A DNA stretch of 20,193 nucleotides, taken from UHGV virus genome UHGV-0040698, one strand, 5' to 3'. Each line of letters opens with the position of its first letter. Position 1 is the first letter of the stretch. The notes under the pieces are model-generated. The model had not been told where the DNA came from. It searched no databases and saw nothing but the letters and a program-made list of their open reading frames with translations. The position numbers and the translations under genes were made by a program. Below are positions 1-19,942 of the stretch, in pieces. The stretch is from a virus.

Positions 1-205
1 GTGGCTTATGAAGACATTACTAACATCGGGGTGTACTAATCAACGGGGAGCAGGTCAGGGTGGCGAAGTAACCACTCTTAACACAGTAAACGAGAAAATG
101 CGGACCGCGTAAGTTTTTTTTGATAGATTATGCATATGCAACGAACCCAGGATCATTAACAAATCACAACCCATTGATTCAAAAGGATAATAAAGGGTAA
201 TTTTA

Positions 206-1138
206 ATGACTACTACAGCCACTTCCGCGCCACTAACTAAACAAAAAAAAATGCGTATCGGTTTCTTCCAAAGCTCCTCAGGAACGAAGTCAACTACATC
301 AAATGCACAACTTGCATTTGACAACATGTATACAACCATTGTTACACCTTCGCAAAATTCTTATACCGCTGAGTTTGATAAGAAAAAATTAAAGATTGTA
401 TTATTAGAAAAAGACGCACAGGCGGAGTTCTATTTTGGTTATCTATCATGCTCTCGTGATGGTTTCCACTTACCTTATATTGGTGATGAAAATTGGGATG
501 AGCACAATATTCCGTTAGATGATAAAAAATATATAGTCGAACGCACTTATTTTATTTACTACTATAAGAAAGACATTCTTGTTTTATCTCAAAATCATTT
601 AGGACCTAAAGTTTCCGATTTAGCATTTCTTTTATTCAATTTTTCTGAAGAAAACAAACCTGTAGCGTTTGAGGCAATTTGGAAAAAAGAAAGTGTAAAA
701 GAACTACTTGAAACAGGAAGCACTTTACGTAGCTGTGAAATTACACTCGCCGCTCCACGTAATTTTAGCGCAACGGATTATGACCTTTCGAATTCATTTT
801 CCAAAAGTATGATTGAAATGATGGCTGGGATGGGCGGTTCGCATTTAAAACTATCACTTAGAGGTAGAGCATCGCAACGTAAATTAATCCGTGGTTATCT
901 CAGTGATGAAGTAAAAAGTGGAATAAAGGAATTAATAGAAAAAGTTCCTCACTTATTACGTAAAGCTAATGTCACTGAACCTAAAAATACTCATTCAAGG
1001 AGTCTTCTCAATCAAGTTCTGATCAGTGAAAAAAACATTAACACAAAAGATGGCTACGCAAAAGAAACAGATGTGCGTACTGCCTTGATCAGTGCTAAAA
1101 TTGAACATGGTCAGTATTTAAAGCAATATGAAATCTGA
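206..1138 (+). CDS. Hypothetical 310-aa protein; candidate RexA-like sensor of a two-gene module
   Basis: ATG at 206 with AAGGG upstream; long ORF in visibly AT-rich DNA; immediately followed on the same strand by a small 4-TM membrane protein gene; no catalytic motif recognised. Confidence 0.6.
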   Translation: MTTTATSAPLTKQKKMRIGFFQSSSGTKSTTSNAQLAFDNMYTTIVTPSQNSYTAEFDKKKLKIVLLEKDAQAEFYFGYLSCSRDGFHLPYIGDENWDEHNIPLDDKKYIVERTYFIYYYKKDILVLSQNHLGPKVSDLAFLLFNFSEENKPVAFEAIWKKESVKELLETGSTLRSCEITLAAPRNFSATDYDLSNSFSKSMIEMMAGMGGSHLKLSLRGRASQRKLIRGYLSDEVKSGIKELIEKVPHLLRKANVTEPKNTHSRSLLNQVLISEKNINTKDGYAKETDVRTALISAKIEHGQYLKQYEI

Positions 1139-1161
1139 TCTTATTTTTAAGGATGATGATT

Positions 1162-1605
1162 ATGCTTATTAAAGTTTTAATTAACATAGTTATCAGTGGG
1201 CTGTTAGCTTGGGTGCTTGGGAAATACCTAGCGCCTATGGCTCACTCTGATATCTTAAGTACAGCCGGAGTGTTATCTACGGTGGCAGGCATTTTGTTTG
1301 GTTTTGTATTGGCCGCTATTTCCATCTTCAGTTCTGCAAGTTCAAGTACTGATGGAATTATTTTTGCTTTAAAACAAAACAAGATTTTACCTAAAATTAT
1401 TCATAACCTGTTATCTACGGGAGTTACCTTAATATTAGCATGTATTTTCCCGCTGATAGCAATGTTTATAAATGAAAAAATCACCATTACCTCTGTAAGA
1501 CTTGATTTCGCCCTAACCTTATATGGTTTCTCGACCCTGATCGTATCAATAGTTTCATTTGCAAGTACCTGGAGGAAAATAAACTGGATATTACCCCACA
1601 TATAA
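1162..1605 (+). CDS. Small four-helix membrane protein (147 aa); candidate RexB-like effector
   Basis: AAGGA Shine-Dalgarno 8 nt before ATG at 1162 (track start 1153 sits directly on the SD); four hydrophobic segments of ~20 aa; gene pair architecture matches lambda RexA/RexB. Confidence 0.6.
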   Translation: MLIKVLINIVISGLLAWVLGKYLAPMAHSDILSTAGVLSTVAGILFGFVLAAISIFSSASSSTDGIIFALKQNKILPKIIHNLLSTGVTLILACIFPLIAMFINEKITITSVRLDFALTLYGFSTLIVSIVSFASTWRKINWILPHI

Positions 1606-1608
1606 TAT

Positions 1609-1634
1609 TAAGCAGGTGCAAGCACACCTGCTTA
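1609..1634. terminator. Strong hairpin between convergent genes (possible bidirectional terminator)
   Basis: 10-bp perfect stem TAAGCAGGTG/CACCTGCTTA with 6-nt loop, 4 nt after the stop at 1603-1605 and 15 nt before the Q stop; no clean U-tract on either side. Confidence 0.4.
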
Positions 1635-1648
1635 TCCAAACCAAGATA

Positions 1649-2011
1649 TTAATCCATATCTAAGCTAACATTTAGAATAGCTAGACAACCTTCTATAAAT
1701 CCCTCAGCCATCTGTATCTCAATGCGTATTATTTTCTCATCCTTTTTGCGAGCTTTAGCGAGCTTTCTTTTAGAGATACCGTATAGGTAATGGGCAACAA
1801 GAAGCGAGTGTTCTTCAGGTCTTTTTTGCTTTAGACGAGCAAGACAACCTTCAATAATTAATGCATCACTATCTGAACAAGCCTGACGTGTTTTGCTTGT
1901 ATAGGGAAGAAGCCCTTTAAACCCAGCAGCTATAGGCGAATAGTCTACCCCAGAACTATCACTCGCCGCCCATGCACCCCAACGATCCAGAACCATCTGA
2001 ATATCACGCAT
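1649..2011 (-). CDS. Antitermination protein Q (phage 82 / QuuD-like Q family)
   Basis: Product begins MRDIQMVLDRWGAWAA...IAAGFKGL, the characteristic N-terminus of enterobacterial prophage Q proteins; track start at 2026 adds 5 residues; last gene of the minus-strand operon. Confidence 0.8.
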   Translation of the reverse strand: MRDIQMVLDRWGAWAASDSSGVDYSPIAAGFKGLLPYTSKTRQACSDSDALIIEGCLARLKQKRPEEHSLLVAHYLYGISKRKLAKARKKDEKIIRIEIQMAEGFIEGCLAILNVSLDMD

Positions 2012-2028
2012 CAACTTTCTCCACAAAA

Positions 2029-3024
2029 TCAGGCCAGCACGCCAGTTGCCAGCGCGCGATCGATAAAACGAAATATCAGCTCCAGCTGGGAGCCATACTT
2101 CTCTTCAAATGCCACGGTATCCGCATGCAGCTCGTCGTGATGCTTTCTGCACAAAGGCAACACAAAGAGATCATGCGCTTTTGTACCCATTCCACCCTGA
2201 CCGTGGCCTATCAGGTGGTGGGGATCATCAGCAGGCTTTCCACAACATGCACACGGCTGCGTCTTAACCCAGCGCGTGTACTTTTCATTAACCCAGCGGC
2301 GACGTTTTGGGCGTAACATAAAAGACTCCGGCGACTCTGGATCCACTTTCAGCGCCAGCACCTTTTTCGCTTTATCCTGGATAATGCTGGTGGCAGGAAC
2401 CGAAGGAACAAGGTCACTCTCCCGGGTGACAGACGGCACAACAGGCTTAGGTAATCTCAGTGCCTTACGGGCTGCACTTTCCGGTAAGGCATCAGCCAGG
2501 TCATTACGAACCAGCCACCAGCACAGTTCCGGCATTGTTACAACGTGACTATCATCAAAACCGAGATCACGGCGCACAACAGATAACACCCAGCGGGCAC
2601 AGTTATCCGTTGCCATTGATTCCAGCCGTTCCGTGAACTGATCGCGCAGCTGGTTATCGCAGTGCCAGCACAGACGGATTGCGCCCGGCGCGTGTCGCAT
2701 TGTGGTCATGTTCTCGCTGTGCCAGTCAGAATGGGGCCACTGGCAGCCTTTTTCACGAAGTAACCAGCTTTCAAGACATTCCACTCCACCAGCACGACGG
2801 ATTACTGCCTCATTGCGGAACACGGCCCGAACGGCAGGATCATCCGCCAGCGGTTGTGATGCCGCCGGAACGGCACCACTGGCGAAAGATGAATAACGTT
2901 CCGGCTCAGGCTCCAGCAGGACACGCCCCTGCATAAACAGGGGCATCAGCTCTGAACCTGGTCTGAACAATACGATCCCCATACGCGGGGCAATTTCAGG
3001 GGTCAGTAGTGCTCTCACGGTCAC
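2029..3024 (-). CDS. DUF968-family phage protein (YdfU-like) with Cys/His-rich HNH-like C-terminus
   Basis: C-terminal CACCGKPADDPHHL...CRKHHDELH motif typical of DUF968 prophage proteins; track start is GTG at 3024 and true start is uncertain (next ATG at 2982 lacks SD). Confidence 0.7.
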   Translation of the reverse strand: MTVRALLTPEIAPRMGIVLFRPGSELMPLFMQGRVLLEPEPERYSSFASGAVPAASQPLADDPAVRAVFRNEAVIRRAGGVECLESWLLREKGCQWPHSDWHSENMTTMRHAPGAIRLCWHCDNQLRDQFTERLESMATDNCARWVLSVVRRDLGFDDSHVVTMPELCWWLVRNDLADALPESAARKALRLPKPVVPSVTRESDLVPSVPATSIIQDKAKKVLALKVDPESPESFMLRPKRRRWVNEKYTRWVKTQPCACCGKPADDPHHLIGHGQGGMGTKAHDLFVLPLCRKHHDELHADTVAFEEKYGSQLELIFRFIDRALATGVLA

Positions 3025-3025
3025 C

Positions 3026-3841
3026 TCAATGAACGGTATTGAGCAGCTTTAACAGCTCAGGGAATCGGGATTCGAAGAAGTGCGGCTGCGTCTCGCGCGG
3101 ATTTGCAGGACTGGTGATGTTCTTGCCGAACATGCAGCCTTTCGCTGTCAGCGACCAGAATTTTTTGATGTTGTTAATCGAGGTACGGCTGTATCGTTCG
3201 CGCTGCTCGACGATCCCCAGCTTCACCATCTGGTGATATGCCTGATTAGCCGTAAGGCGGATACCATACTGTTTCAGCAGTGCACTCAGCGACAGCGTAG
3301 GGCGGCTTGAACCATCTGGCGCATCAGCAGGTGCATCAATGGCATAGATCGGCATAAGTTCAGGAAGACCAGCTACCTTTGATAATTTCTGGTATGCACC
3401 AAGTTTCGAGGAGTTTGACAGATTTAGAGTCTTTGCTGCTGATTCAAGCAGAATGACCCCGGATTTAATTTTGTCGGATGTGGTTTCTTCTGGTGATGAA
3501 TTATGAAGCGCATCAAAAGTACGTATCACTTTTAAGCTGAATGCCGGGCTGATCCACATTGCATATGCATAGACCAGCTCTTTACAGACATACGTCCCAC
3601 CATTGCGCCCCTGAATGGTGATGACAGGAATACTACGGGAATCTCCCGTAGTTTCTTCTTCCAATAATTCCACAAGAGCCTTCGTTTCAGGACGACGCAT
3701 AAACTCGTGAACTTCCAGCGAACGGGAGGAGCGATTCTCACCAGCGGCAAGAAGAGCAGCTTTCTGAAGGTCGTTAAGACAGTAGTTAGATTCGAAGTAC
3801 TGGCGCACAGAAACGCCATCAATTACAAGCAACTGATTCAT
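3026..3841 (-). CDS. KilA-N domain protein, antirepressor-like
   Basis: IQGRNGGTYVCKELVYAYAMWISPAFSLKV KilA-N signature; start moved from GTG 3853 to ATG 3841 which has GGAGA 5 nt upstream; LexA box lies in its upstream region. Confidence 0.7.
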   Translation of the reverse strand: MNQLLVIDGVSVRQYFESNYCLNDLQKAALLAAGENRSSRSLEVHEFMRRPETKALVELLEEETTGDSRSIPVITIQGRNGGTYVCKELVYAYAMWISPAFSLKVIRTFDALHNSSPEETTSDKIKSGVILLESAAKTLNLSNSSKLGAYQKLSKVAGLPELMPIYAIDAPADAPDGSSRPTLSLSALLKQYGIRLTANQAYHQMVKLGIVEQRERYSRTSINNIKKFWSLTAKGCMFGKNITSPANPRETQPHFFESRFPELLKLLNTVH

Positions 3842-3938
3842 TGGTTTCTCCACAAATTTTTATCCACGAGCGGGACTGCACTCCCTTTTCGTTGATGCAG
3901 GATGAACTTACTGCGATTTTTAATAGTTATCAAGGATA

Positions 3939-3958
3939 CACTGTTCATAAATACAGTA
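3939..3958. promoter_or_regulatory. LexA (SOS) box upstream of the KilA-N gene
   Basis: caCTGTtcataaatACAGta matches the CTGT-N8-ACAG core of the E. coli LexA box consensus; lies in the 150-bp intergenic gap between rusA and the KilA-N gene. Confidence 0.6.
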
Positions 3959-4003
3959 TCTTTAACGAGGTAATACCCAAATTTAGGGTGTTGCTCAATT
4001 CCG

Positions 4004-4399
4004 TTACCGAGTTGCTAATTTGCAACTCGCTTTTTCGTACTTACTGATAGTGATCTCGACCTTCCCCTCCGGGATAACCGGTCCCCACTCCACCAGCATT
4101 CTTTTCACCTGACTGTCGTCTTCCCACACACCCGCGTGGGTCAGGGCGTCAAACAGCGCCTTGTTATAGTTGTCCAGATCGCGGATCCGGTTATCCGGAG
4201 GAAACAACACGATCTCCACTGAAGCAGGTGCCGACGTTGGTTTTGGCAGACGACGTAACTGCTCAACTATTGCTGCACACGCCGCGCTCTGGAATTTGCG
4301 CCCCGCCGCGCTTATCAGGCTCTTACCTGCAAACGCCCCTTTGTTGGGGTGTCGCCAGTACGTGTTCACGCTGGGCGGGAAAGGCAGGATCAGCTTCAT
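4004..4399 (-). CDS. rusA: Holliday junction resolvase RusA
   Basis: ~130-aa product with conserved RusA-like acidic core (DLDNYNKALFDALT...W.DD.QV); ATG with GAGGGG upstream; ATGA overlap with upstream gene. Confidence 0.8.
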   Translation of the reverse strand: MKLILPFPPSVNTYWRHPNKGAFAGKSLISAAGRKFQSAACAAIVEQLRRLPKPTSAPASVEIVLFPPDNRIRDLDNYNKALFDALTHAGVWEDDSQVKRMLVEWGPVIPEGKVEITISKYEKASCKLATR

Positions 4400-4722
4400 A
4401 CTTTCAGACCCCTCTCATGTAACCAGTGGGCTGCACGCAACCTGGCGTTCTCCTCACCGGCAAGCAGTGCGCGGATGATACCGACCGCTTCGCTGTCGTC
4501 GTCCTTCACTGCGGTATGAAGCGTGATCCCCCGGGCCACGCCACGCTTTATCGTGATGACGCCTTTTTTCTCCAGTGCGCGAAGATGCTCCACCGCTGCA
4601 TTCACCGAACGGTATCCCAGCATGGTTGCCACCTCCTGATTGGTTGGCGGAAAGCCACGTTCTTTCTGGTAAGAAATCAGCATATCCAGCACCTGCTGCT
4701 GGCATTGAGTTAACGTCGTCAT
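4396..4722 (-). CDS. LexA N-terminal DNA-binding-domain protein without peptidase domain
   Basis: LTQCQQQVLDMLISYQKERGFPPTNQEVATMLGYRSVNAAVEHLRALEKKGVITIKRGVARGI parallels the LexA winged-helix N-domain (LT.RQ.EV...I......G.PPT..EIA..LG.RSPNAAEEHLKAL.RKGVIEI..G.SRGI); 108 aa, no S24 Ser/Lys domain; GGAGA SD. Confidence 0.7.
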   Translation of the reverse strand: MTTLTQCQQQVLDMLISYQKERGFPPTNQEVATMLGYRSVNAAVEHLRALEKKGVITIKRGVARGITLHTAVKDDDSEAVGIIRALLAGEENARLRAAHWLHERGLKV

Positions 4723-5862: not shown

Positions 5863-6804
5863 TCACCCCCTGAATCCTGCCGGGATTTGGCTGTAGTCCA
5901 CGTTGTCGTAACTGGCTTTGAAGTACGGGTCTTCGCGTTTTTCGGTGTACGTGCTGACGGACGGCGATAAGCGCAGGGAAAGCTCATCCCATTTTTCCCG
6001 CAGCTTCGACGGGCTGAGCACGTTACGGCACCAGAACGGATCGCGACTGACGCGGCTGTACATCTCGCAGATTTGTTTATGAGTACGACCATCCTGCACA
6101 CACATCAGGCGAATTTCGTTTGCCCAGGCTGTCCAGTTCGGTTCTTTGGGACGAACCACCTCGCCGTCACATTCGGCGGCCTGCTCGTACAGGGCGATGA
6201 TTTTTTTCCAGAGCCACTGTGCGCAGGTCAAATCATCCTGCGTTCCCCACTGGCGCTTTTTAGGGCTGAATACAACCGCATCAGGATGGCGAGTTAAAAA
6301 CTCCTGTTCAGCCGTCTGCGTGTCCGGTTGCGAAGCGTCCGGACGAGAAGTTTTTTTATCTGACGGATCATGTTTTGATTTTACTGACGGATCCCCGCCA
6401 GATTCTGACGGGTGAAAACCCGCTTTTTTGCCAGATTTCGACGCATCAAATTTTGACGGGTCAGATTTTGATGCGTCAGATTTTGACGGGTCAGAATCTG
6501 ACAGTTGAGAAAATGCCGCTGCCTGAAGCTTCGCAACGTTAAGCTGATAAACATTCGACGCATTGCGGTTACCCTGGCGACGCGCCTTACGCGTTAACCA
6601 GCCTTCTGCTTCCAGCCGTGCGATAGCCGTTCTGACGGTACTCATTCCCGCGCCAATCTGGCGGGCAATGGTTTCAATTGATGGCCAGCACACACCTTCG
6701 TCATTACTGAAATCAGCCAGGCGGGCCATAATTGCCACGCTGGATAATTTCATGCCTGATGCAGCGCAACCATCCCATACATAGCCGGTTAATTTAGTGC
6801 TCAT
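5863..6804 (-). CDS. Phage replication initiation protein (N-terminal winged-HTH, repeat-containing linker)
   Basis: N-terminus CWPSIETIARQIGAGMSTVRTAIARLEAEGWL is an HTH of replication-initiator type; the gene contains DNA iterons that encode the SDPSKSDASKSDPSKFDASKS repeat; GAGG SD. Confidence 0.7.
   Translation of the reverse strand: MSTKLTGYVWDGCAASGMKLSSVAIMARLADFSNDEGVCWPSIETIARQIGAGMSTVRTAIARLEAEGWLTRKARRQGNRNASNVYQLNVAKLQAAAFSQLSDSDPSKSDASKSDPSKFDASKSGKKAGFHPSESGGDPSVKSKHDPSDKKTSRPDASQPDTQTAEQEFLTRHPDAVVFSPKKRQWGTQDDLTCAQWLWKKIIALYEQAAECDGEVVRPKEPNWTAWANEIRLMCVQDGRTHKQICEMYSRVSRDPFWCRNVLSPSKLREKWDELSLRLSPSVSTYTEKREDPYFKASYDNVDYSQIPAGFRG
6355..6506. repeat. Iteron array inside the replication gene (candidate origin of replication)
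   Basis: About eight imperfect direct copies of a ~14-15 bp unit (ATTTTGACGGGTCAG, ATTTTGATGCGTCAG, GATTCTGACGGGTG ...) with TGACnnGTCA cores, analogous to ori-lambda inside gene O. Confidence 0.6.
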
Positions 6805-6813
6805 GACCGACCT

Positions 6814-7152
6814 CTATTTCCCTGAATTTACGACGAAACTGTTCGAGCGGGCTGAAGCACTCATGCTCATAGCCTTCGCGGAGGTAGATAACACGTTGTG
6901 TTTCCGGCTCCCAACGAATGACTCTGACGGGCACTCCGTAGTGATCTTTGAACCAGCGGTTAACTTGTCGCAAAGGACTGTCTCCTTCTGCCGGTTGAAA
7001 TCACCCACAGCCCACTCTGCAAAGCTGTGGGTTACAATTTCCCTGTCACCTGGTACATTTACTGCATAGCAATACTCCACCTTCGCTTTTCCACCCGGTA
7101 CAGGAAGCGCAATCAGTTGCGAGCGACGGTAGTGTGTTGTTAAACTGTTCAT
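6814..7152 (-). CDS. Hypothetical protein (112 aa)
   Basis: ATG at 7152 overlaps the upstream stop (ATGA) and has GGAGA upstream; stop 7 nt before the replication gene start; no recognisable motif. Confidence 0.4.
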
Positions 7153-7712
7153 GCGTTAGTTTCTCCACAGTCACGACACGCCACGGCGCCCGGAGCTGCA
7201 CACTCGCGGGCGTCACTACTTTCTGAAACGCAAAAGATTTTGTAGACCAGTGCTGCATGCTCCTGCAGCTTCGAAATTGAGAGGTACAGCTCATCGTTAA
7301 TTGCTGTCTTCTCATGCGGTTCCACTACACCGTCTTCAATTGCTGAACGAATCTGTTTTGAATAACTGCCGATCTGTTCAATGACTTCCAGCAGGCGTTG
7401 GTTGATATCGGCGTTGTCCACATCCTCGACGTCAGGAAGAGACACAAAGACGCCATTTGCAGACTGCGCCACAGCATCAGCAATGAAGTGAGTGCCACCA
7501 GCACGCTGTAAAACCATTGCCCATCCCAGCGGGAAAATCTGATCGCCATCTGCACGAAGGCGGTTGAATAAAGCGTTTTCTGTTACATCGAGCCAGTCAG
7601 CCGCTTCAGCGTAACCACCCGGCAACGCCGCGATAGTTTTTCTGACAGCTTTCACGTACCACTCAGGCTGTTTTTCTATTTTCCAGTGATGCTTACCCAC
7701 GGTTAGCCTCAT
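7149..7712 (-). CDS. CII-like / YdaT-like phage regulatory protein
   Basis: Position directly downstream of the Cro-like gene as in Rac ydaS-ydaT; 187-aa product; weak SD; family assignment by context and size only. Confidence 0.45.
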
Positions 7713-8034: not shown

Positions 8035-8709
8035 ATGAAAACAATCCATGACATCCGGCGGTCTAACGCCAGAAAACTGAGAGATGGTGTTGGCGGGAAT
8101 TCTTCCTTTGCCACTATGATTGATCGCGAGCCAACCCAGACCAGCAGGTTTATGGGAGATGGTGCTACTAAAAATATCGGTGACAGCATGGCACGACACA
8201 TCGAAAAATGTTTCGACCTGCCTGTCGGATGGCTCGATCAAGAACACCAGACAACGAACATCACAAAAAAACCTGATGTTTCAATCACTAATAAACAAAT
8301 CACATTAGTCCCTGTCATATCATGGGTACAGGCCGGAGCATGGAAAGAAGTTGGATATTCTGAGGTTGATTTGAGCACAGCAGAAACGTATCCCTGCCCT
8401 GTACCCTGTGGGGAAATGACTTATATCTTGCGGGTGATAGGTGATTCAATGATTGATGAGTACCGCCCGGGAGACATGATTTTTGTCGATCCTGAAGTAC
8501 CTGCCTGCCACGGTGACGACGTTATTGCATTGATGCACGATACAGGCGAAACCACCTTCAAAAGGTTGATAGAAGATGGGACACAGCGTTATCTCAAAGC
8601 GTTAAACCCAAACTGGCCTGAGCCTTACATTAAGATCAACGGTAATTGCTCTATAATTGGTACAGTGATTTTCTCAGGAAAACCAAGAAGATACAAAATC
8701 AAAGCCTAA
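8035..8709 (+). CDS. cI-like prophage repressor with S24 (LexA-type) autopeptidase domain
   Basis: C-terminal GDSM...FKRL Ser/Lys dyad spacing typical of S24 peptidases; N-terminal CI-type DNA-binding region; divergent from the cro-like gene. Confidence 0.85.
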   Translation: MKTIHDIRRSNARKLRDGVGGNSSFATMIDREPTQTSRFMGDGATKNIGDSMARHIEKCFDLPVGWLDQEHQTTNITKKPDVSITNKQITLVPVISWVQAGAWKEVGYSEVDLSTAETYPCPVPCGEMTYILRVIGDSMIDEYRPGDMIFVDPEVPACHGDDVIALMHDTGETTFKRLIEDGTQRYLKALNPNWPEPYIKINGNCSIIGTVIFSGKPRRYKIKA

Positions 8710-8780: not shown

Positions 8781-8902
8781 CCAAGCGAAACAACGAACAG
8801 GCAGGACGCCCACGAAGTAGCCGCCTGGGGCATATGAAGTCCAGGATGATTCGTTGAGTCATGTTGTGCCACTAGGCACTCATGTTAAAGCAGGTGTATG
8901 AA

Positions 8903-9178
8903 ATGAAAGTCCAGATTTTAAACAATAACTGTGAAGTCGTTTGGTCATACGACATAGCCGCCCCTGTAGATCAGAGCGGCGATAGCTGGACCAATGGGAA
9001 ACATCAGATTATGGCTGGAGTTGTGTTCTCTTTACGCCGTGCTTTGGAACAGGCTGAAGTATTTCCATCAGACCCTGAATGGAAATGGCCTTTTTCTATT
9101 TGTCCAAATTCGGAGAGCACATTTCAGAAAATTGGTCAGAAAGTCGCACTCGAAGAGCATCAGCCAACTGTTTCCTGA
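8903..9178 (+). CDS. Hypothetical small protein (91 aa)
   Basis: AGGTG 8 nt before ATG 8903; first ORF after the repressor-controlled promoter; overlaps the convergent ORF 9096-9341 by 83 nt so one of the two may be spurious. Confidence 0.35.
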   Translation: MKVQILNNNCEVVWSYDIAAPVDQSGDSWTNGKHQIMAGVVFSLRRALEQAEVFPSDPEWKWPFSICPNSESTFQKIGQKVALEEHQPTVS

Positions 9179-12353: not shown

Positions 12354-12703
12354 TGGAGCCATACAGCCTCACACTCGATGAGGCCTGTCATTTTCTCAAG
12401 ATATCCAGACCGACTGCCATTAACTGGATACGCACAGGGCGTCTTCAGGCAACACGCAAAGATCCCACTAAGAATAAATCTCCTTACCTCACAACACGAC
12501 AAGCCTGCATTGCGGCTCTTCAGTCTCCGCTGCATACTGTCCAGGTGAGTGCGGGTGATGGCATAACAGAGGAAAGAAAATGTCACTCTTCCGCAGAGGT
12601 GAAATATGGTACGCCAGTTTCACATTGCCGAACGGTAAAAGATTTAAACAGTCTCTTGGAACAAAGGACAAAAGGCAGGCGACAGAACTCCATGACAAGC
12701 TAA
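12353..12703 (+). CDS. Excisionase-like (AlpA/Xis-type HTH) protein
   Basis: [28 protein letters not shown] helix-turn-helix of excisionase type; TAATG coupling to the upstream gene; 3' end overlaps the integrase start by 124 nt, so the true C-terminus is uncertain. Confidence 0.5.
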
Positions 12704-13743
12704 AGGCTGAAGCATGGCGGGTCAGCAAACTTGGTGAAATACCTGATATAACGTTCGAGGAAGCGTGTGTCAGGTGGCTTGAAGAGAAAGCACATAAAAA
12801 ATCACTGGACGATGACAAAAGCCGGATCGGATTCTGGCTTCAACATTTCGCAGGAATGCAACTAAGAGACATTACTGAATCAAAAATTTATTCAGCAATG
12901 CAGAAAATGACGAACCGGCGTCATGAGGAAAACTGGAGACTCAGGGCAGAAGCATGCAGAAAAAAAGGGAAACCTGTTCCAGAATACACGCCAAAACCAG
13001 CGTCCGTTGCAACGAAGGCTACGCATCTTTCATTTATAAAGGCCCTACTAAGAGCCGCAGAGCGTGAATGGAAAATGCTGGATAAGGCACCAATTATTAA
13101 AGTGCCTCAACCAAAGAATAAACGGATCCGCTGGCTGGAGCCCCATGAAGCACAAAGGCTGATTGATGAATGTCCGGAGCCATTAAAGTCTGTTGTTGAA
13201 TTTGCACTGGCAACAGGCTTAAGACGCTCGAACATCATCAACCTTGAATGGCAACAAATAGACATGCAGCGCCGGGTGGCATGGATAAACCCGGAAGAGA
13301 GTAAATCAAACCGCGCAATTGGCGTTGCGCTGAATGATACTGCATGTCGCGTTTTGAAAAAACAAATCGGGAATCATCACCGTTGGGTATTTGTGTACAA
13401 GGAAAGCTGTACCAAACCAGACGGAACGAAAGCGCCAACAGTAAGGAAGATGCGGTATGACGCAAACACAGCCTGGAAAGCGGCGCTGAGACGGGCTGGT
13501 ATTGATGATTTCAGATTTCACGACTTGAGACACACCTGGGCAAGTTGGCTGGTTCAAGCCGGAGTCCCGTTGTCAGTGTTACAGGAAATGGGAGGCTGGG
13601 AGTCTATCGAAATGGTTCGTCGATATGCTCACCTTGCACCTAATCACCTTACCGAACACGCACGGCAAATAGACTCGATCCTGAACCCATCGGTCCCAAA
13701 TTTGTCCCAGTCAAAAAATAAGGAAAGTACTAATGATGTGTAA
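12580..13743 (+). CDS. Lambda-family tyrosine integrase (Rac IntR-like)
   Basis: N-terminal [14 protein letters not shown] arm-binding region; catalytic R (LATGLRRSN), HxxR ([10 protein letters not shown]) and Y (VRRYAHL); GAGGAA SD; transcribed toward the tRNA-derived att core. Confidence 0.9.
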
Positions 13744-13757
13744 CTTATTGATTTAAA

Positions 13758-13806
13758 TGGTGCCGATAATAGGAGTCGAACCTACGACCTTCGCATTACG
13801 AATGCG
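13758..13806 (-). other. Partial tRNA-Thr(CGU) (thrW) 3' end, 49 nt: attachment-site core
   Basis: Minus strand reads CGCATTCGTAATGCGAAGGTCGTAGGTTCGACTCCTATTATCGGCACCA = anticodon loop (CGT), T-arm and acceptor 3' strand of E. coli thrW; the 5' half of the tRNA is absent. Confidence 0.75.
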
Positions 13807-13894
13807 TAAATTGATCTTGTAAAATCAATACCTATCGAATTTAAATGGATTTTTTGCCACAATATTGCCACAGTTCGTTAGGAATCAGACAGAA

Positions 13895-14968
13895 ATGGCG
13901 ACTATACGCAAACGTGGTAACTACCAATGGGAAGCTCAAATCCGTAAACGAGGTTTTCCCTCTCAAACCAAAACCTTTAACACCAAAGTAGAAGCAGAAG
14001 CTTGGGCCAAAATGATCGAGTCAGAAATGGCGAGAGGAGTTTGGCTTAGCCGCAGCGAAGCGGAATCTACGACATTGTATGAAGCCCTAACGCGATATGA
14101 AAAAGAGATTGTTCCCGACAAAAAAGGGGCAGTGCAAGACCAATCATTGGTGCGGATACTAAAAGGCACTCAGCTGGCGAAAAACTATATGGCCAGCATC
14201 AGGAGTGCCGATGTCGCCAAGCTGAGAGATGAATGGTTGAAAATCTATGCCCCTGCAACCGTTTTAAGGCGTTTGGCCTTACTTTCTCATGTATTCAACG
14301 TTTCGCGGAAAGAATGGGGCATGGAGAGCCTGCTGAACCCCGTAGAGGCCATTCGCAAACCTCAACCCAAGAACTCCAGGACCAGACGCCTGGAAGCGCT
14401 GCCTGTAGTTTCTGAGAAAACCGGTGTTACGTCAGGAAAGGAAATAGCCAACGAGATCGAACATATCATCGCCGCAACACATTCATTAGTATTGCCAGCA
14501 ATCATTCTTCTGGCGTTAGAGACAGCCATGCGCCGTAGCGAAATCGCAGATCTTCGATGGCGCTTTATCGATCTTGATCGGCGAGTTGCACATCTGCCGG
14601 ATACTAAGAATGGTAATGCCCGCGATGTCCCTTTATCAACGAAAGCCATCACGATACTGTCCAGTCTCAAGGAACATTCTAAGCCAGCTGCTGATAAGGT
14701 TTTTGATATGCGTGCAGACGCGATTACCCGAGCTTTTGACCGAGCTGTAAAACGAGCCAGAGAACGATACGAGAAAACAAACTCATTATGTGATGAATCA
14801 TTCCTTAAAGATTTAAGATTTCATGACCTTCGACATGAAGCAACTTCTCGACTTGCTGAAATTTTCCCTATGCATGAACTGACCAAAATTACAGGACATA
14901 AAGATCCAAGAATGCTAATGCGGTATTATCATCCAAAAGCTGAAGATTTGGCGTTAAAGTTGAAATAA
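13895..14968 (+). CDS. Tyrosine recombinase / integrase of the second island
   Basis: Catalytic R (ETAMRRSE), HxxR (FHDLRHEATS) and Y (LMRYYH); ATG at 13895 (the track start 13865 is a TTG). Confidence 0.85.
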   Translation: MATIRKRGNYQWEAQIRKRGFPSQTKTFNTKVEAEAWAKMIESEMARGVWLSRSEAESTTLYEALTRYEKEIVPDKKGAVQDQSLVRILKGTQLAKNYMASIRSADVAKLRDEWLKIYAPATVLRRLALLSHVFNVSRKEWGMESLLNPVEAIRKPQPKNSRTRRLEALPVVSEKTGVTSGKEIANEIEHIIAATHSLVLPAIILLALETAMRRSEIADLRWRFIDLDRRVAHLPDTKNGNARDVPLSTKAITILSSLKEHSKPAADKVFDMRADAITRAFDRAVKRARERYEKTNSLCDESFLKDLRFHDLRHEATSRLAEIFPMHELTKITGHKDPRMLMRYYHPKAEDLALKLK

Positions 14969-14977
14969 GGACGTTAT

Positions 14978-15868
14978 ATGGAATATAAAAATAATTTGGT
15001 TGACGCATCATCCAAATTAAACAACCCTCAACTATTGGCTATAATATACTTAATACCTTTTGGATACTTGATTGTAGAAAACCCATTATGGCTAGAAAAT
15101 ATATACATTGCCGCTCCAATTTTTCTATCATCTATAGCTTTATTAACCAGTGTATACATAGGATATCGTGATTTATTAAATAAAGTATTTAATAATACAG
15201 TGGTTAAGTGGGGCGTAACTGGCTTTACATATTCAGTATGCTTATGGATCGCAAAGTTTAAGCTTGACATAGCTTATGGTATAGCCCCAGAAAATCTTAA
15301 TTACTCAACATTAGCTTATGCTTTCATGCTCTCATTTCCAATAGGAGCAATGATTTGTGCAACTACAGTCTATATATACATATTTTTGCGAGATGTATCC
15401 CCAGCAAAAATAGTAATATCCTCTATGATTTCAGTATATATTGGAAACTTGGCTCAACATCATATACAAGTGAACAATCTTCCTGAAAAAATAATATTAA
15501 TAGGACTCATAATTATGGTCCCCTATAACATGGTCAATCTAGCCAGTTCATTAGTTATTAAAAGGAAATTTAATTTTAATCGTTTAGTATCAGGCTTATC
15601 CCTTTTTGCTGTGTCAGTTGCTCTTTTTATTATTAGCATGACAGCAATGAAATATATTGAAAGATTTCAAGAAAAGTTTATTTTTCTTGATGCAAGAACA
15701 TCTACGACATGTGGTAGCGCAGAAAGCAAATCTCTTTATATTGAAAAAAATGAAAATCAGTGTTATAAAATATCAGGAAATAAATTCTCGGAGTTAAGAC
15801 TAACTCTTGTAGATAAAAACATCCCGAATATAAATAATAAGGGCACTTCAACTTATGAACAAAAATAA
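14978..15868 (+). CDS. Polytopic membrane protein of unknown function (296 aa)
   Basis: AGGA SD 8 nt before ATG, 9 nt after the integrase stop; multiple hydrophobic segments; strongly AT-rich. Confidence 0.65.
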   Translation: MEYKNNLVDASSKLNNPQLLAIIYLIPFGYLIVENPLWLENIYIAAPIFLSSIALLTSVYIGYRDLLNKVFNNTVVKWGVTGFTYSVCLWIAKFKLDIAYGIAPENLNYSTLAYAFMLSFPIGAMICATTVYIYIFLRDVSPAKIVISSMISVYIGNLAQHHIQVNNLPEKIILIGLIIMVPYNMVNLASSLVIKRKFNFNRLVSGLSLFAVSVALFIISMTAMKYIERFQEKFIFLDARTSTTCGSAESKSLYIEKNENQCYKISGNKFSELRLTLVDKNIPNINNKGTSTYEQK

Positions 15869-16082
15869 CCCTGCTAATTCATTTTCTATAGAAGCAAGGA
15901 AAGAAGCTTTTCGGAGAGCTGAAGCCAGTCTTTTTTTATCAAGTAAAGATCCCAAAGGCTCCTCATTTTTTAATGAAATAAAAAATAAGGTAATCAATGG
16001 AGAGCTAACCTATGAAGAGGCAAAGAGAGAAGTGTTAAATCATCACATTGAACAATCTAAAAATAAAATTAAAAAAGGCTAA
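15855..16082 (+). CDS. Small charged protein (75 aa), unknown function
   Basis: ATG overlaps the end of the membrane-protein gene by 14 nt; weak SD. Confidence 0.45.
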   Translation: MNKNNPANSFSIEARKEAFRRAEASLFLSSKDPKGSSFFNEIKNKVINGELTYEEAKREVLNHHIEQSKNKIKKG

Positions 16083-16342
16083 CATCCAGTTAGCTGTATT
16101 AGCTCAGGCTCGAACTGACAGTTTGCGTAGGCAAAATGCAACCAAATCTGACAGTCTGCTTTGAGCGAGGAGCGGACGTTAGTAATTGTATCGTCGTGGG
16201 CGCATTATTATTTTTCTATTCAACTAAATGTGATAGGGGTGTCTTTTAGTGTTGTTTCTATTGTTCACAAAGGCTTCAATTTGATATGAAGCCCTTATTT
16301 AAGAATTTAGGGCTAGGATGCTTTTGCGTAGCATTGCTATTA

Positions 16343-17296
16343 TTATTTAGGGCGGGCTGATGTTAATGTCGCTAGCAAGGTTGGCATGAACCATTCTCTA
16401 ACAAGCTCCTCATACATATTTGAAAGATTTGTTAACTTATGCCAAACCACTTCGGAACAGTAACTCAAAAAATGTTCATAATGTTCAGGTTTTACCTCTT
16501 TATCAATATCTATTTGAAGTTGGATCAACTCCTTTTGGCTCGATACCATCGGCTTCCAAAATTCATGACCAGACCATATATCTTGTCTAAGAGCAATTAC
16601 AATAAAGTTATTTACCATCTCTATAGCTTCATCGAAAGAGACAGGAAATTGTACGGCCGCTTTACCTTGTAATCGGTTTATTTCTTTTAATTGATAGTTA
16701 AAAAGTGAGAATGCGCCATACATTTTTGATCTTTTACCATATGCACGTAATGGAACAAGCGCATCTTCATCATCCAGAATTTCATTTTCAAGAGGTATAT
16801 ATATAGTCTTTGAGTCTTTTTTAGAATAATTCGGGTCTTCTGGTATGAGAACTTTATCTATGTAATCATTAAGGCAAATAAAAAATGCCTTTTCTGTATT
16901 AGTGTCAACTAGTATCAATAATACTGGAATTGCAATACCTATAGACTGAACAGTCAAAATGTCTGATATATCTAACTTGAATTTTGCGACAGGGATTTCG
17001 ACAAAATCGCTTTTATCTTCTGTTAACTTTCCTTTGGTTACATTTCCACGAGCATAGGCTTTACGTGTACAATATTCAATACAATCTGAAGATTTTAGTT
17101 GTACAAAGAAGTTTTCACCAAGGGTTTCTGCAATACTTTCACTGTCATCAATAAAATCAAATAATTCAACAACGCAATCAATACCATAGTCAGCGCCATA
17201 GCTATGTACGACCCATTCGCGAGGTAGTTTTTCCCGCAGAACCCTGATTGAAATGTCTTCTTTTACCTGGCTAATAGACCGTCTTTTCTTTGGCAT
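16343..17296 (-). CDS. DUF4365-like (PD-(D/E)xK nuclease-like N-terminus) protein, 317 aa
   Basis: Strong GGAGG SD; N-terminal HSYGADYGIDCVVELFD...FFVQLKSS pattern resembling DUF4365; AT-rich. Confidence 0.65.
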   Translation of the reverse strand: MPKKRRSISQVKEDISIRVLREKLPREWVVHSYGADYGIDCVVELFDFIDDSESIAETLGENFFVQLKSSDCIEYCTRKAYARGNVTKGKLTEDKSDFVEIPVAKFKLDISDILTVQSIGIAIPVLLILVDTNTEKAFFICLNDYIDKVLIPEDPNYSKKDSKTIYIPLENEILDDEDALVPLRAYGKRSKMYGAFSLFNYQLKEINRLQGKAAVQFPVSFDEAIEMVNNFIVIALRQDIWSGHEFWKPMVSSQKELIQLQIDIDKEVKPEHYEHFLSYCSEVVWHKLTNLSNMYEELVREWFMPTLLATLTSARPK

Positions 17297-17472
17297 GTTA
17301 CCTCCTAAAATTACAAATTAAAAAACAGATCTTACACTCGAATGCTTAAAATGTCCGCTTCTGACACAGGGCTGCTGTTGCAGCCCTGACAACCTCGTAA
17401 CATTCCCCCCTTCATTATTAGTTTTAAATCTTGTCAATTTTCTTCTTTCAAGAATATGCTTGCATCAAGCAA

Positions 17473-18867
17473 TCACGGCTTTTCCTTGGCTTTGAGTTTA
17501 TCGGCGACATCTGGAACAATACTAAACTCGGTTACTGATGCAAGTACCTGGTTTTTCCATTGGGTCTCACAGATGATCTCTCCATTGTGTTCAAACCAAT
17601 GTGTTGCCCCCGGCAGGAAATCATGGGACATTGGATAAGCAGCATTAGGGTTATGAAATACTTCAAGTTCAAAACACCAAAATTCTTTGCCATCGCAAAG
17701 ATTAATATATTCAGGCGATTGAATATCTAGATCGAAGTCAATTGGTTCCAAGGCCCCTTCAGTCCTATCAAATAAAATCCCAACCCTGCGGGCTTTCACA
17801 ATAGGTGAGGAAAATTCAGCTTGGATTGCCATTCGCTGGAATTTTGGCAATGTTCCAGCATTACTAAACAAGATAGCAGATAAATTTTCAATCTCTGGGT
17901 GGTTAAATAGTCCTGCCGGAATATTTACATGGCCTAAAAGCTTTTCAATTGATAATGCAGCAGCCTTCATACCTTTGGATGTTTTGACTGTATGTGCGGT
18001 TTGCCCATACAAATAGGTTGGAAGTGACTCGCGAGACCAGACCATAGTGCCCCCACCGCTAAAATCCGCTATAGCGATTGCAAATGGAAATCCTTTAACA
18101 TGCGGTAGTTCTTCATACTTTCTCTGGAGTTTAGATCTGATGGTCTTAGCGAACCGTGCTGCCATATCACCTGCTGTGCGAGCTAATCGATCTCCGGGGG
18201 GGAATTGTGTTTGAGGCAACTTTAGGCTGCCCGGACCAGTTGGATTCGCGGTGACCGCCTCAACATATGCTTTGTTATTACCGTTCATGAGCATAAAATC
18301 CGGAGATGGATAATCTTGAAAAACTTTAATTCCCTGCTCTTTAAAACATGCGAAAAGGTATAGCTCCCAGATTCTAGAGTTGAATCCTTGGGTCTGGAGA
18401 TCGGTTCTGAAGTTATCATCAGGTTTTGGTAATGCCAGATAGAGCTCGACAATTAAATGAAATGCTCCTCGGTACTTTATCGTGGACGATAATTGTATAA
18501 ATGCCTGACAAACATTCCGCTCACCAACATGATCCAGTCGGGCTCTACGTGATTGCCCAGATGGAATCGGTAATAAATCTCCTCCGGCTGAAAGGTGCTT
18601 ATCAAGATGCACCAATGCCTCCTGCTCGGTAAAACACATCTCATGCTCGAGAGGTACCAGCACATAATCTTCCCGTCGCCTGAGCACAACAAGGCCATAT
18701 GAATTTTTGCTGTATTGAAGGACTGCACCATATCCAAGCCCTTTTTCATTTGACCAAGCGGAAAGTAATTCCGCATTACCATAATTAGGCCCATGTGGCA
18801 ATGACATTGCAAATATCTTAAATGCTTCAGTAGGCATTCTTTGTAGGCTATAGATCTTATTAGACAT
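17473..18867 (-). CDS. Hypothetical protein (464 aa), second gene of a two-gene operon
   Basis: GGAGAG SD 8 nt before ATG 18867 (the track's ATG 18873 is only 2 nt from the SD); 22 nt after the upstream gene; no named motif. Confidence 0.65.
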   Translation of the reverse strand: MSNKIYSLQRMPTEAFKIFAMSLPHGPNYGNAELLSAWSNEKGLGYGAVLQYSKNSYGLVVLRRREDYVLVPLEHEMCFTEQEALVHLDKHLSAGGDLLPIPSGQSRRARLDHVGERNVCQAFIQLSSTIKYRGAFHLIVELYLALPKPDDNFRTDLQTQGFNSRIWELYLFACFKEQGIKVFQDYPSPDFMLMNGNNKAYVEAVTANPTGPGSLKLPQTQFPPGDRLARTAGDMAARFAKTIRSKLQRKYEELPHVKGFPFAIAIADFSGGGTMVWSRESLPTYLYGQTAHTVKTSKGMKAAALSIEKLLGHVNIPAGLFNHPEIENLSAILFSNAGTLPKFQRMAIQAEFSSPIVKARRVGILFDRTEGALEPIDFDLDIQSPEYINLCDGKEFWCFELEVFHNPNAAYPMSHDFLPGATHWFEHNGEIICETQWKNQVLASVTEFSIVPDVADKLKAKEKP

Positions 18868-18889
18868 TTTCATCTCTCCATAGATAATC

Positions 18890-19942
18890 CTAAAATTCAG
18901 TTAAATTGAAGCTTCCTTGATTTAGATGACATATTTCTGGGACGACCGATTCTGATATACCTTCACTTTCATGAATCCCTAGTGTTACTACTGTACTAAG
19001 CTCAGGAAACAATCTTCTCTTTGTTTTTGGTTTAATTTTTATATGTGAGATCATCTCCAAAAATCTGGAGGTTGTATAAATTGTGTCATAATGAGCAGAT
19101 CCTTCGCCATCGTCATACCATGAGCCTGTATCCACTACTACAGTGTTAAGTAATGGTGCTATTAAATTGAAATTATCAGTGCGAATAGAGACTGCAAACT
19201 TGAAGGGATAAGAATCTTGCTGTGCAAAGTAATCCTCACCACGCCCGTATTGCCTAGTAATTTCAACTATTCCGCGCACCAAAAGATAAATATAATTTTC
19301 GTCAAGGTTCAGCAACTCAATGGATTCAACATTGCACCAATCAACAGTTGTTTGTGAAGATAATATATCCAGTTCGTCAGGGATATTATTCATTGTGATG
19401 TCAGTAACTTCATTCTGTACTTCCTCGATTATTGATTCGGTAATAACACGCTCAAGTTCATCGAAGGTATCGAATATTATGTTACACAGTTCTATTATTA
19501 GTTTAGCACTCTCAAAAAACTGTTTGGGGTTACTATCAAATGAATGTTCGCTAATATGGGTGTAATCGTTTAAAGAAGAATAGTTTTTATTGAACCATGC
19601 TATACCATCATCTAGTCTTTCGATAGCTACATCATCAAGAAGTTGATCGGGTATATGCTTCTGGGCGATGTATTTTGCTTGCTGTTTACGGGTAACAGTG
19701 GCGTTATTTTTGTTTTTAGTGAACCATGGAGACGCCATAACTCTGTCATTTGGTGCCAGTCGTTTCAGCACATGATTTATTAGCTCACGTATTGCAAATG
19801 CAAAGTTGTTGAAGCGCAGAGGATTACCATGAGAACAATAGTTGCGAAGACTGGCATGTAAGAGTTCATGCTCAAAGTCAGTTTCTAGGTGCTCTTGAAA
19901 CTCCTTGATGAAATCCATTTCAAGCATTTTTTTTAGTTTCAT
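18890..19942 (-). CDS. Hypothetical protein with HEPN-like R-x4-H motif (350 aa)
   Basis: ATG at 19942; N-terminal FAFAIRELINHVL contains R-x4-H; AT-rich; first gene of the operon. Confidence 0.6.
   Translation of the reverse strand: MKLKKMLEMDFIKEFQEHLETDFEHELLHASLRNYCSHGNPLRFNNFAFAIRELINHVLKRLAPNDRVMASPWFTKNKNNATVTRKQQAKYIAQKHIPDQLLDDVAIERLDDGIAWFNKNYSSLNDYTHISEHSFDSNPKQFFESAKLIIELCNIIFDTFDELERVITESIIEEVQNEVTDITMNNIPDELDILSSQTTVDWCNVESIELLNLDENYIYLLVRGIVEITRQYGRGEDYFAQQDSYPFKFAVSIRTDNFNLIAPLLNTVVVDTGSWYDDGEGSAHYDTIYTTSRFLEMISHIKIKPKTKRRLFPELSTVVTLGIHESEGISESVVPEICHLNQGSFNLTEF

Follow-up and report, generated by a model that had tools for sequence, protein, structure and literature searches.

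The virus genome UHGV-0040698, analyzed here as one stretch of 20,193 nucleotides (nt; hereafter the window), raises the question of what is encoded by two co-oriented genes beside its Q antiterminator gene, the first for a soluble protein (A) and the second for a small membrane protein (B). The comparisons described below lead us to regard it as likely that positions 122-1652 form a self-contained two-gene cargo cassette for a divergent phage-exclusion (abortive infection) system of the RexAB type. No abortive-infection system has been known for longer than RexAB, the trigger and mechanism of which are still debated. The kind of system is a known one; what would be new is the assignment of a domain of unknown function (DUF) family and its unannotated partner to the Rex superfamily, together with the placement of the pair in a Q-adjacent slot that is uncoupled from the repressor gene cI. 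The window prophage is a lambdoid Escherichia coli prophage of the CPS-53/yfd type and runs from Q (1649) to an integrase gene (12580-13743), ending near position 13806.

Gene A encodes 310 amino acids (aa) in which hydropathy analysis finds no hydrophobic segments. The ATG of gene B at 1162 comes 23 nt past the stop codon of gene A, with an AAGGA ribosome-binding site 8 nt upstream of it. Two other ATGs in the same frame, at 1153 and 1156, would give proteins of 150 aa and 149 aa, respectively; we prefer the 147-aa form because these two codons lie too near the AAGGA and because the RefSeq annotation of relatives uses the 147-aa start. The B protein contains four hydrophobic stretches (Kyte-Doolittle window centers at residues ≈10-21, 43-56, 90-103, and 126-129), and its AlphaFold2 (AF2) model is a four-helix bundle with helices at residues 2-22, 28-59, 75-102, and 114-143 (predicted local distance difference test score, pLDDT, 79.7). 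Its lysine, arginine, and histidine residues are concentrated in two places, the C-terminus and the loop that joins helices 2 and 3, and the sequence suggests a topology in which the N-terminus, the C-terminus, and this central loop are cytoplasmic, as has been proposed for RexB and for gp31 of mycobacteriophage Sbash. The GC content is 0.31-0.39 over positions 151-1650 (≈35% for the cassette), compared with 0.52-0.57 at 1951-3150 (≈55% for the neighbors). Both genes have relatives down to ≈44% identity, 63 for A and 90 for B (E ≤ 1e-3 in each search), and many contigs are common to the two lists of homologs; we therefore take both open reading frames (ORFs) to be real genes. The layout given in a preliminary description of this DNA, in which a 310-aa soluble protein gene is followed after 23 nt by a 147-aa protein with four helices, is thus recovered in the ORFs, the hydropathy, and the AF2 model. 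The AT-richness, the convergence with Q, and the strong hairpin named there are likewise borne out by the GC profile, the strand of Q, and the stability of the hairpin relative to shuffled sequence (Table 1).

Curated families place the A protein in Pfam DUF6731 (PF20505; 44.3 bits against a gathering cut-off of 27, E 2.1e-11, residues 12-273), and the RefSeq protein identical to A is labeled "DUF6731 family protein." The B protein matches no Pfam family. In the PHROG collection, A belongs to PHROG 7651 and B to PHROG 8552, both of which are annotated as "unknown function," and scans of the two proteins with PADLOC v2 and NCBIfam return nothing relevant and no Rex match. BLASTP of the window proteins against RexA and RexB is not significant. 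It does pair the segment GPKVSDLAFLL of A (residues 133-143) with GPTTSDLTDFL of lambda RexA (residues 109-119), at an E value of 0.37 that is not significant alone. The preliminary description had associated a G-P-x-x-S-D-L segment with RexA, and the lambda protein does carry it.

A relationship between A and RexA emerges only when profiles or folds are compared. We widened the DUF6731 profile by a search of 1.8 billion cluster representatives, which yielded 185 clusters (E ≤ 1e-3), mostly of proteins of 280-305 aa. The resulting broad profile (effective number of sequences 6.5) aligns with a RexA-family profile in hhalign at a probability of 68.6-83.6% and an E value of 4.6e-5 to 8e-6. The alignment is collinear over 249-255 columns, joining residues 16 to 304-310 of A with residues 1 to 265-271 of RexA, and the GP..SDL motif falls at an equivalent position in the two proteins. 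Controls comprising 35 column-shuffled profiles and one reversed profile score at most 20.6, compared with 40-45 for the real alignments. The structural comparison used an AF2 model of A built from 49 relatives (pLDDT 81.9, predicted template modeling score 0.74), for which the best Foldseek match in the Protein Data Bank (PDB) is RdgC (2owl; E 1.5e-3, probability 0.85-0.94), followed by CENP-N. The A component is accordingly predicted to have a RexA-type fold, with a split globular domain and a dimerization domain, that resembles RdgC. Taken jointly, the modeled fold and the profile alignment provide good evidence that A is a remote homolog of lambda RexA.

The membrane proteins were compared in the same manner, using as the RexB set the ORFs directly downstream of RexA homologs in IMG/VR, which amounts to 20 loci with fewer distinct sequences and a RexA identity that extends down to ≈25%. 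The window B family alone aligns with the RexB family over 62 columns at a probability of 35.8% (E 3.8e-4), in a region that takes in helix 2, the histidine ahead of it, and the central loop. The two families are connected by the membrane partners that accompany distant DUF6731 genes. These partners carry the bridging motif ...SxTLLGFhhAAhxhL...RNhxKTGH...; they align with the window B family at 99.5% (E 8.6e-23, 137 columns) and, on their own, with the RexB family at 96.8% (E 2.5e-10, 121 columns), whereas the combined B profile reaches 95.3% against RexB (E 2.1e-8, 89 columns). Shuffled controls score at most 14.4, compared with 52-64 for the real alignments. By profile comparison, then, B is a remote homolog of RexB. 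Helix 2 and the central loop are also the most conserved parts of the window B family; helix 2 is nearly invariant and includes the invariant glycines G43 and G47, L70 and K71 in the central loop are invariant, and helix 2 together with these two central-loop residues are the obvious candidates for a pore or an A-contact surface. In a Foldseek search of BFVD with the B model, the second match (probability 1.0, template modeling score ≈0.5, E 0.034) comes from mycobacteriophage Sbash; at 165 aa it has the length of gp31, the RexB-like defense component of that phage, and it may be the same protein. The RexA/RexB relationship proposed earlier thus extends beyond mere layout to remote homology of both halves.

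The two genes travel together throughout the family. Distant DUF6731 loci were retrieved with a Pseudomonas-centered sub-alignment, and a hydrophobic ORF of 142-176 aa lies directly downstream of A or overlaps it in 25 of the 27; the other two are cut by a contig end, so that every one of the 25 assessable loci is paired. All but one of these 25 partner ORFs have three to four hydrophobic segments. The two genes are strictly linked. The distant pairs occur in Pseudomonas, Halomonas, Acinetobacter, Pseudoalteromonas, Desulfoluna, and a Saprospiraceae metagenome-assembled genome, among others, and their neighbors include Mu-like prophage genes, S24 and helix-turn-helix repressor genes, integrase genes, and a type I restriction fragment. 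In Pseudomonas phage AUS531phi (locus 2383-4569), a CI repressor gene, the A homolog, and a small membrane ORF follow one another in the lambda order cI-rexA-rexB, and in a Vibrio Vinavirales element the pair comes after the integrase gene. The partner in AUS531phi is annotated from a GTG codon as 118 aa; a locus 96% identical to it allows an upstream start that gives 161 aa and four hydrophobic segments. An A allele of 45% identity is found in an unrelated phage, a Klebsiella prophage, between a primase gene and the tape-measure region and adjoining "Imm_superinfect." A B gene is called there in one of three otherwise identical loci, and the missing calls may reflect either a lapse in gene calling or disruption of the partner. 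At 50% identity, the ≈185 clusters of the family come from Enterobacterales, Pseudomonas, Halomonas, Acinetobacter, Vibrio, Desulfoluna, and a Saprospiraceae genome. We lean, if with some reserve, toward the view that DUF6731 and its small membrane partner make up a large unrecognized branch of the RexAB superfamily, which in the lambdoid prophages of E. coli takes the form of an exchangeable antisense cassette near Q, uncoupled from cI.

Like lambda RexA/RexB (RexA, PDB 8TWQ), the window pair consists of a soluble protein of ≈280-310 aa and, encoded directly after it on the same strand of a temperate coliphage, a membrane protein of ≈145 aa with four helices, and window B aligns with lambda RexB over helices 2 and 3 and the central loop. 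Pairwise identity between the two pairs is ≈12%. Lambda rex adjoins cI, whereas the window pair is placed between Q and the late genes, where co-transcription with the repressor gene is not possible. The pair also fits RexAB in the broad sense, that is, a soluble protein of ≈280-370 aa followed by a co-oriented four-helix protein of ≈140-190 aa. Such systems reside in temperate phages and prophages, and the window pair is likewise found in a prophage, in phage cdtI, and in intact prophages.

A similarly divergent pair with experimental precedent is RexABpp (PP_5643/PP_5644) of Pseudomonas putida prophage P1, a proven phage defense in which overexpression of the A protein leads to B-dependent membrane damage (Sci Rep 2026, PMC12894663). 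RexBpp is longer than window B, with mutations reported up to Y181 compared with a total of 147 aa, and RexABpp sits two genes from a CI-like repressor gene. The termini of PP_5643, as deduced from the published primers, match none of the 338 proteins that we collected, and scans of viral contigs and metagenome contigs for the primer sequences found nothing. If RexApp shares DUF6731, the family already has one validated member. Two-gene prophage defenses composed of a cytosolic protein and a four-helix membrane protein are also known from actinophages, namely Sbash gp30/gp31 and CarolAnn gp44/gp43, and in Sbash gp31 the central cytoplasmic loop is essential, as substitutions there, R70A and D73A, abolish defense (Gentile et al. 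2019, mBio). Sbash gp30 has 372 aa, compared with 310 aa for window A, and hhalign finds no similarity of Sbash gp30 or gp31 to either the window families or the lambda RexA and RexB families. The window pair is therefore closer in sequence to lambda Rex than are the accepted Rex-like systems of actinophages. The other proteins related in fold, RdgC (PDB 2OWL), which forms a recombination-associated DNA-binding ring, and the kinetochore proteins Chl4/Iml3 and CENP-N/CENP-L, differ from A in having neither a membrane partner gene nor a prophage-cargo context.

By analogy with these systems, the pair most likely defends its host against other phages. The mechanism that we propose follows lambda RexAB, Sbash gp30/gp31, CarolAnn gp44/gp43, and P. 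putida RexABpp. In the lysogen, a promoter of its own would drive expression of the pair; the sole candidate is a weak sigma-70-like site at 163-191 (ATCACA-17-GATAAT, matching the consensus at 9 of 12 positions). Cytoplasmic A, probably a DNA-binding dimer, would sense an early product or a replication intermediate of the infecting phage and would then activate B in the inner membrane. B in turn would depolarize or permeabilize the membrane, with growth arrest and abortive infection as the outcome.

Several observations weigh against assigning the pair to the Rex systems. The Pfam models PF15969 and PF15968 and the PADLOC RexA and RexB models miss both A and B (no match at E ≤ 1), whereas lambda RexA and RexB, used as a positive control, match at 1e-97 and 8.5e-92 in Pfam and at 9e-110 and 8.6e-61 in PADLOC; the window proteins consequently lie outside the curated Rex sequence families. 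The narrow A-family profile is insignificant against RexA in hhalign (probability 1.2%), and the profile-profile probability for A and RexA rises no higher than 69-84%. Hidden Markov model searches of PDB sequences with both the narrow and the broad DUF6731 profiles miss RexA, returning at most insignificant matches to eIF2-alpha. No mention of DUF6731 was found in the literature searched. The cassette, unlike lambda rex, is not in the immunity region beside cI. The promoter evidence amounts to a weak consensus match of a kind that is not enriched, with eight such sites in positions 1-2200 compared with a mean of 6.0 in shuffled sequence. Finally, both the role of lambda Rex (defense as opposed to tuning of the choice between lysis and lysogeny) and its mechanism of activation are still debated.

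The limits of the cassette were placed at ≈122-1652 by comparison with relatives, in which the flanks at 60-121 and from 1653 onward (the 3' end of Q) are conserved. The left flank is also present in avian pathogenic E. coli (APEC) O78, which carries different cargo (92% identity over 60-121), in phage cdtI (60-130), and in Shigella phage SfIV. Its hairpin at 98-110 has T-rich sequence on both sides and is terminator-like in both directions. On the right, relatives retain Q whether or not they carry the gene pair. The hairpin between gene B and Q, which is listed as terminator-like on the minus strand only, belongs to the cassette: it is absent from the relatives with other cargo, in which homology resumes at 1653. 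In APEC O78 (locus 3166-4185) and SL124, the slot is occupied by an unrelated ORF of 339 aa with the same orientation (WP_000357056; second locus 6166-7185), which matches nothing in Pfam or PADLOC and is a candidate for another prophage accessory or defense gene. Other E. coli prophages carry a pair allele of 47% identity in the same slot (313 aa and 149 aa), and the window allele is present in 18 of 5426 complete E. coli genomes. The alternative cargo and the rarity of the window allele identify the site as an exchangeable accessory ("moron") slot. The diverged alleles found in it (99%, 60%, and 47% identity) are probably specific for different phages.

Table 1. Features of the cargo slot and its flanks, with positions as in the window
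Feature	Position	Strand	Description
Left flank of cargo slot	60..121	.	Terminator-like hairpin 98-110, then eight T at 114-121
Cassette-specific upstream region	122..205	+	Not conserved in other-cargo relatives; AAGGG ribosome-binding site before ATG 206
rexA-like gene, DUF6731 (gene A)	206..1138	+	310 aa, soluble; predicted RexA/RdgC fold
rexB-like gene (gene B)	1162..1605	+	147-aa four-helix membrane protein; hydropathy, AF2, hhalign
10-bp GC-rich hairpin between rexB-like gene and Q	1609..1634	.	-16.3 kcal/mol, z -5.3, 0/200 shuffles as good
Q antiterminator gene, right flank of cargo slot	1649..2026	-	Pfam PF06530 Phage_antitermQ, E 3.7e-52

Read along the late strand, intact relatives and the complete phage cdtI share the order Q, the antisense pair, a 67-aa ORF, a DNA methylase gene, and the genes for holin, endolysin, and Rz. 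The cdtI pair consists of orf54 and orf53 (62% identity). Ahead of the 67-aa ORF, the late strand of the intact relatives bears two further terminator-like sites (relative locus 8848-9060). The pR' promoter and the Q-utilization site were not located by simple promoter scans around the cassette. Were pR' to adjoin Q, late transcription would cross the cassette antisense and might silence it during the lytic cycle of the prophage itself, a suggestion that is speculative. The repressor candidate, an ORF at 8035..8709 that was placed through the ymfK/XRE-family repressor genes of relatives, lies ≈6.4 kb from the pair.

A pair of this kind could serve the prophage itself, with A as an RdgC- or RexA-like DNA-binding modulator of recombination or of the lysogeny-lysis decision and B as its membrane antagonist. 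The predicted RexA/RdgC fold of A suits such a role, as do the many invariant basic residues (lysine and arginine) of its close family. Lambda RexA, moreover, binds DNA nonspecifically and biases the CI-Cro switch independently of RexB, which antagonizes this effect, and the authors of that study doubt that exclusion is the true function. We nevertheless consider a regulator of this type unlikely here, given that the cassette lies far from the immunity region, with its genes converging on Q, that it is swapped for unrelated cargo in otherwise near-identical prophages, and that the pair also occurs in unrelated mobile elements (the Klebsiella phage, the Vibrio Vinavirales element, and Mu-like prophages). 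Portability of this kind is more in keeping with an autonomous accessory function than with a regulator tuned to the switch of a single phage.

Within a defensive role, the division of labor could also be the reverse of that proposed above. In mycobacteriophage Butters, gp30/gp31 provide a precedent, summarized in PMC12894663, for a cytosolic protein that is the toxic or antiviral effector and a membrane protein that restrains or sequesters it. The homology and the gene layout of the window pair suit that arrangement as well as the classical one. The membrane protein is, however, the effector in four of the five Rex-type systems described (PMC12894663), and the best-conserved part of the B family, helix 2 with the central loop, is also the part that aligns with RexB, a pattern of conservation that fits a channel or an activation surface better than a simple anchor. 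We judge reversed roles to be quite improbable. That B is a holin and the pair part of the lysis cassette of the phage, as its small multi-helix form and the position after Q, the usual place of lysis genes in lambdoid phages, might suggest, is rejected as highly implausible: the pair runs counter to Q and the late transcript, the lysis genes of intact relatives (for a lambda-family holin, an endolysin, and Rz/Rz1) are separate and come later in the order, and B carries no holin annotation in Pfam or PHROG and aligns to RexB. The preliminary description was correct in placing the pair after Q, although the lysis genes expected there have not been replaced and follow further on in relatives; the same separate holin, endolysin, and Rz genes, opposite in strand to the pair, run counter to the holin with a downstream endolysin that it had named as one finding that would overturn a Rex assignment.

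The RexAB-type reading that we favor has several consequences. Hundreds of hypothetical gene pairs overlooked by present defense-finding tools acquire a working annotation through homology to Rex, and the bridging sequences expose helix 2 and the central cytoplasmic loop as the parts conserved in the RexB family. Variants native to E. coli that lie away from the immunity region would allow a defense role to be told apart from the tuning of the switch by RexA. In prophages of the CPS-53/yfd type, the stretch from Q to the late genes is a slot worth mining for other defense genes. Five Rex-type systems have been described so far (PMC12894663); if the family is a true working defense, many would be added to that number. 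Overall, the finding is a useful, testable annotation that would not surprise a specialist.

Further features were noted elsewhere in the window. Positions 1-59 are the end of an IS4-like ISVsa5 (IS10-like) insertion sequence (IS) element, with the stop codon of the transposase ORF at 37-39. Copies of this 59-bp segment number 903 across 468 E. coli genomes, with as many as 20 in a single genome and 271 on plasmids, and the junction at 59/60 was found in none of the complete E. coli genomes of the collection. As this segment is an IS end, an IS separates the Rex-like cassette from the late genes in this genome. An alternative assignment of the first 59 bases to an integrase or attachment-site junction, prompted by the label "integrase" in one phage record, was rejected on the same grounds. 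Beyond the prophage integrase gene lie a second tyrosine integrase gene (13865-14968) and, on the minus strand, genes for a DUF4365 protein (16343-17296), a 466-aa ORF that matches no Pfam family (17473-18873), and a protein with both "pPIWI-associating nuclease" domains, pP_pnuc_1 and pP_pnuc_2 (18890-19942). The region 13865-19942 looks like part of a pPIWI-RE-type defense island integrated beside the prophage.

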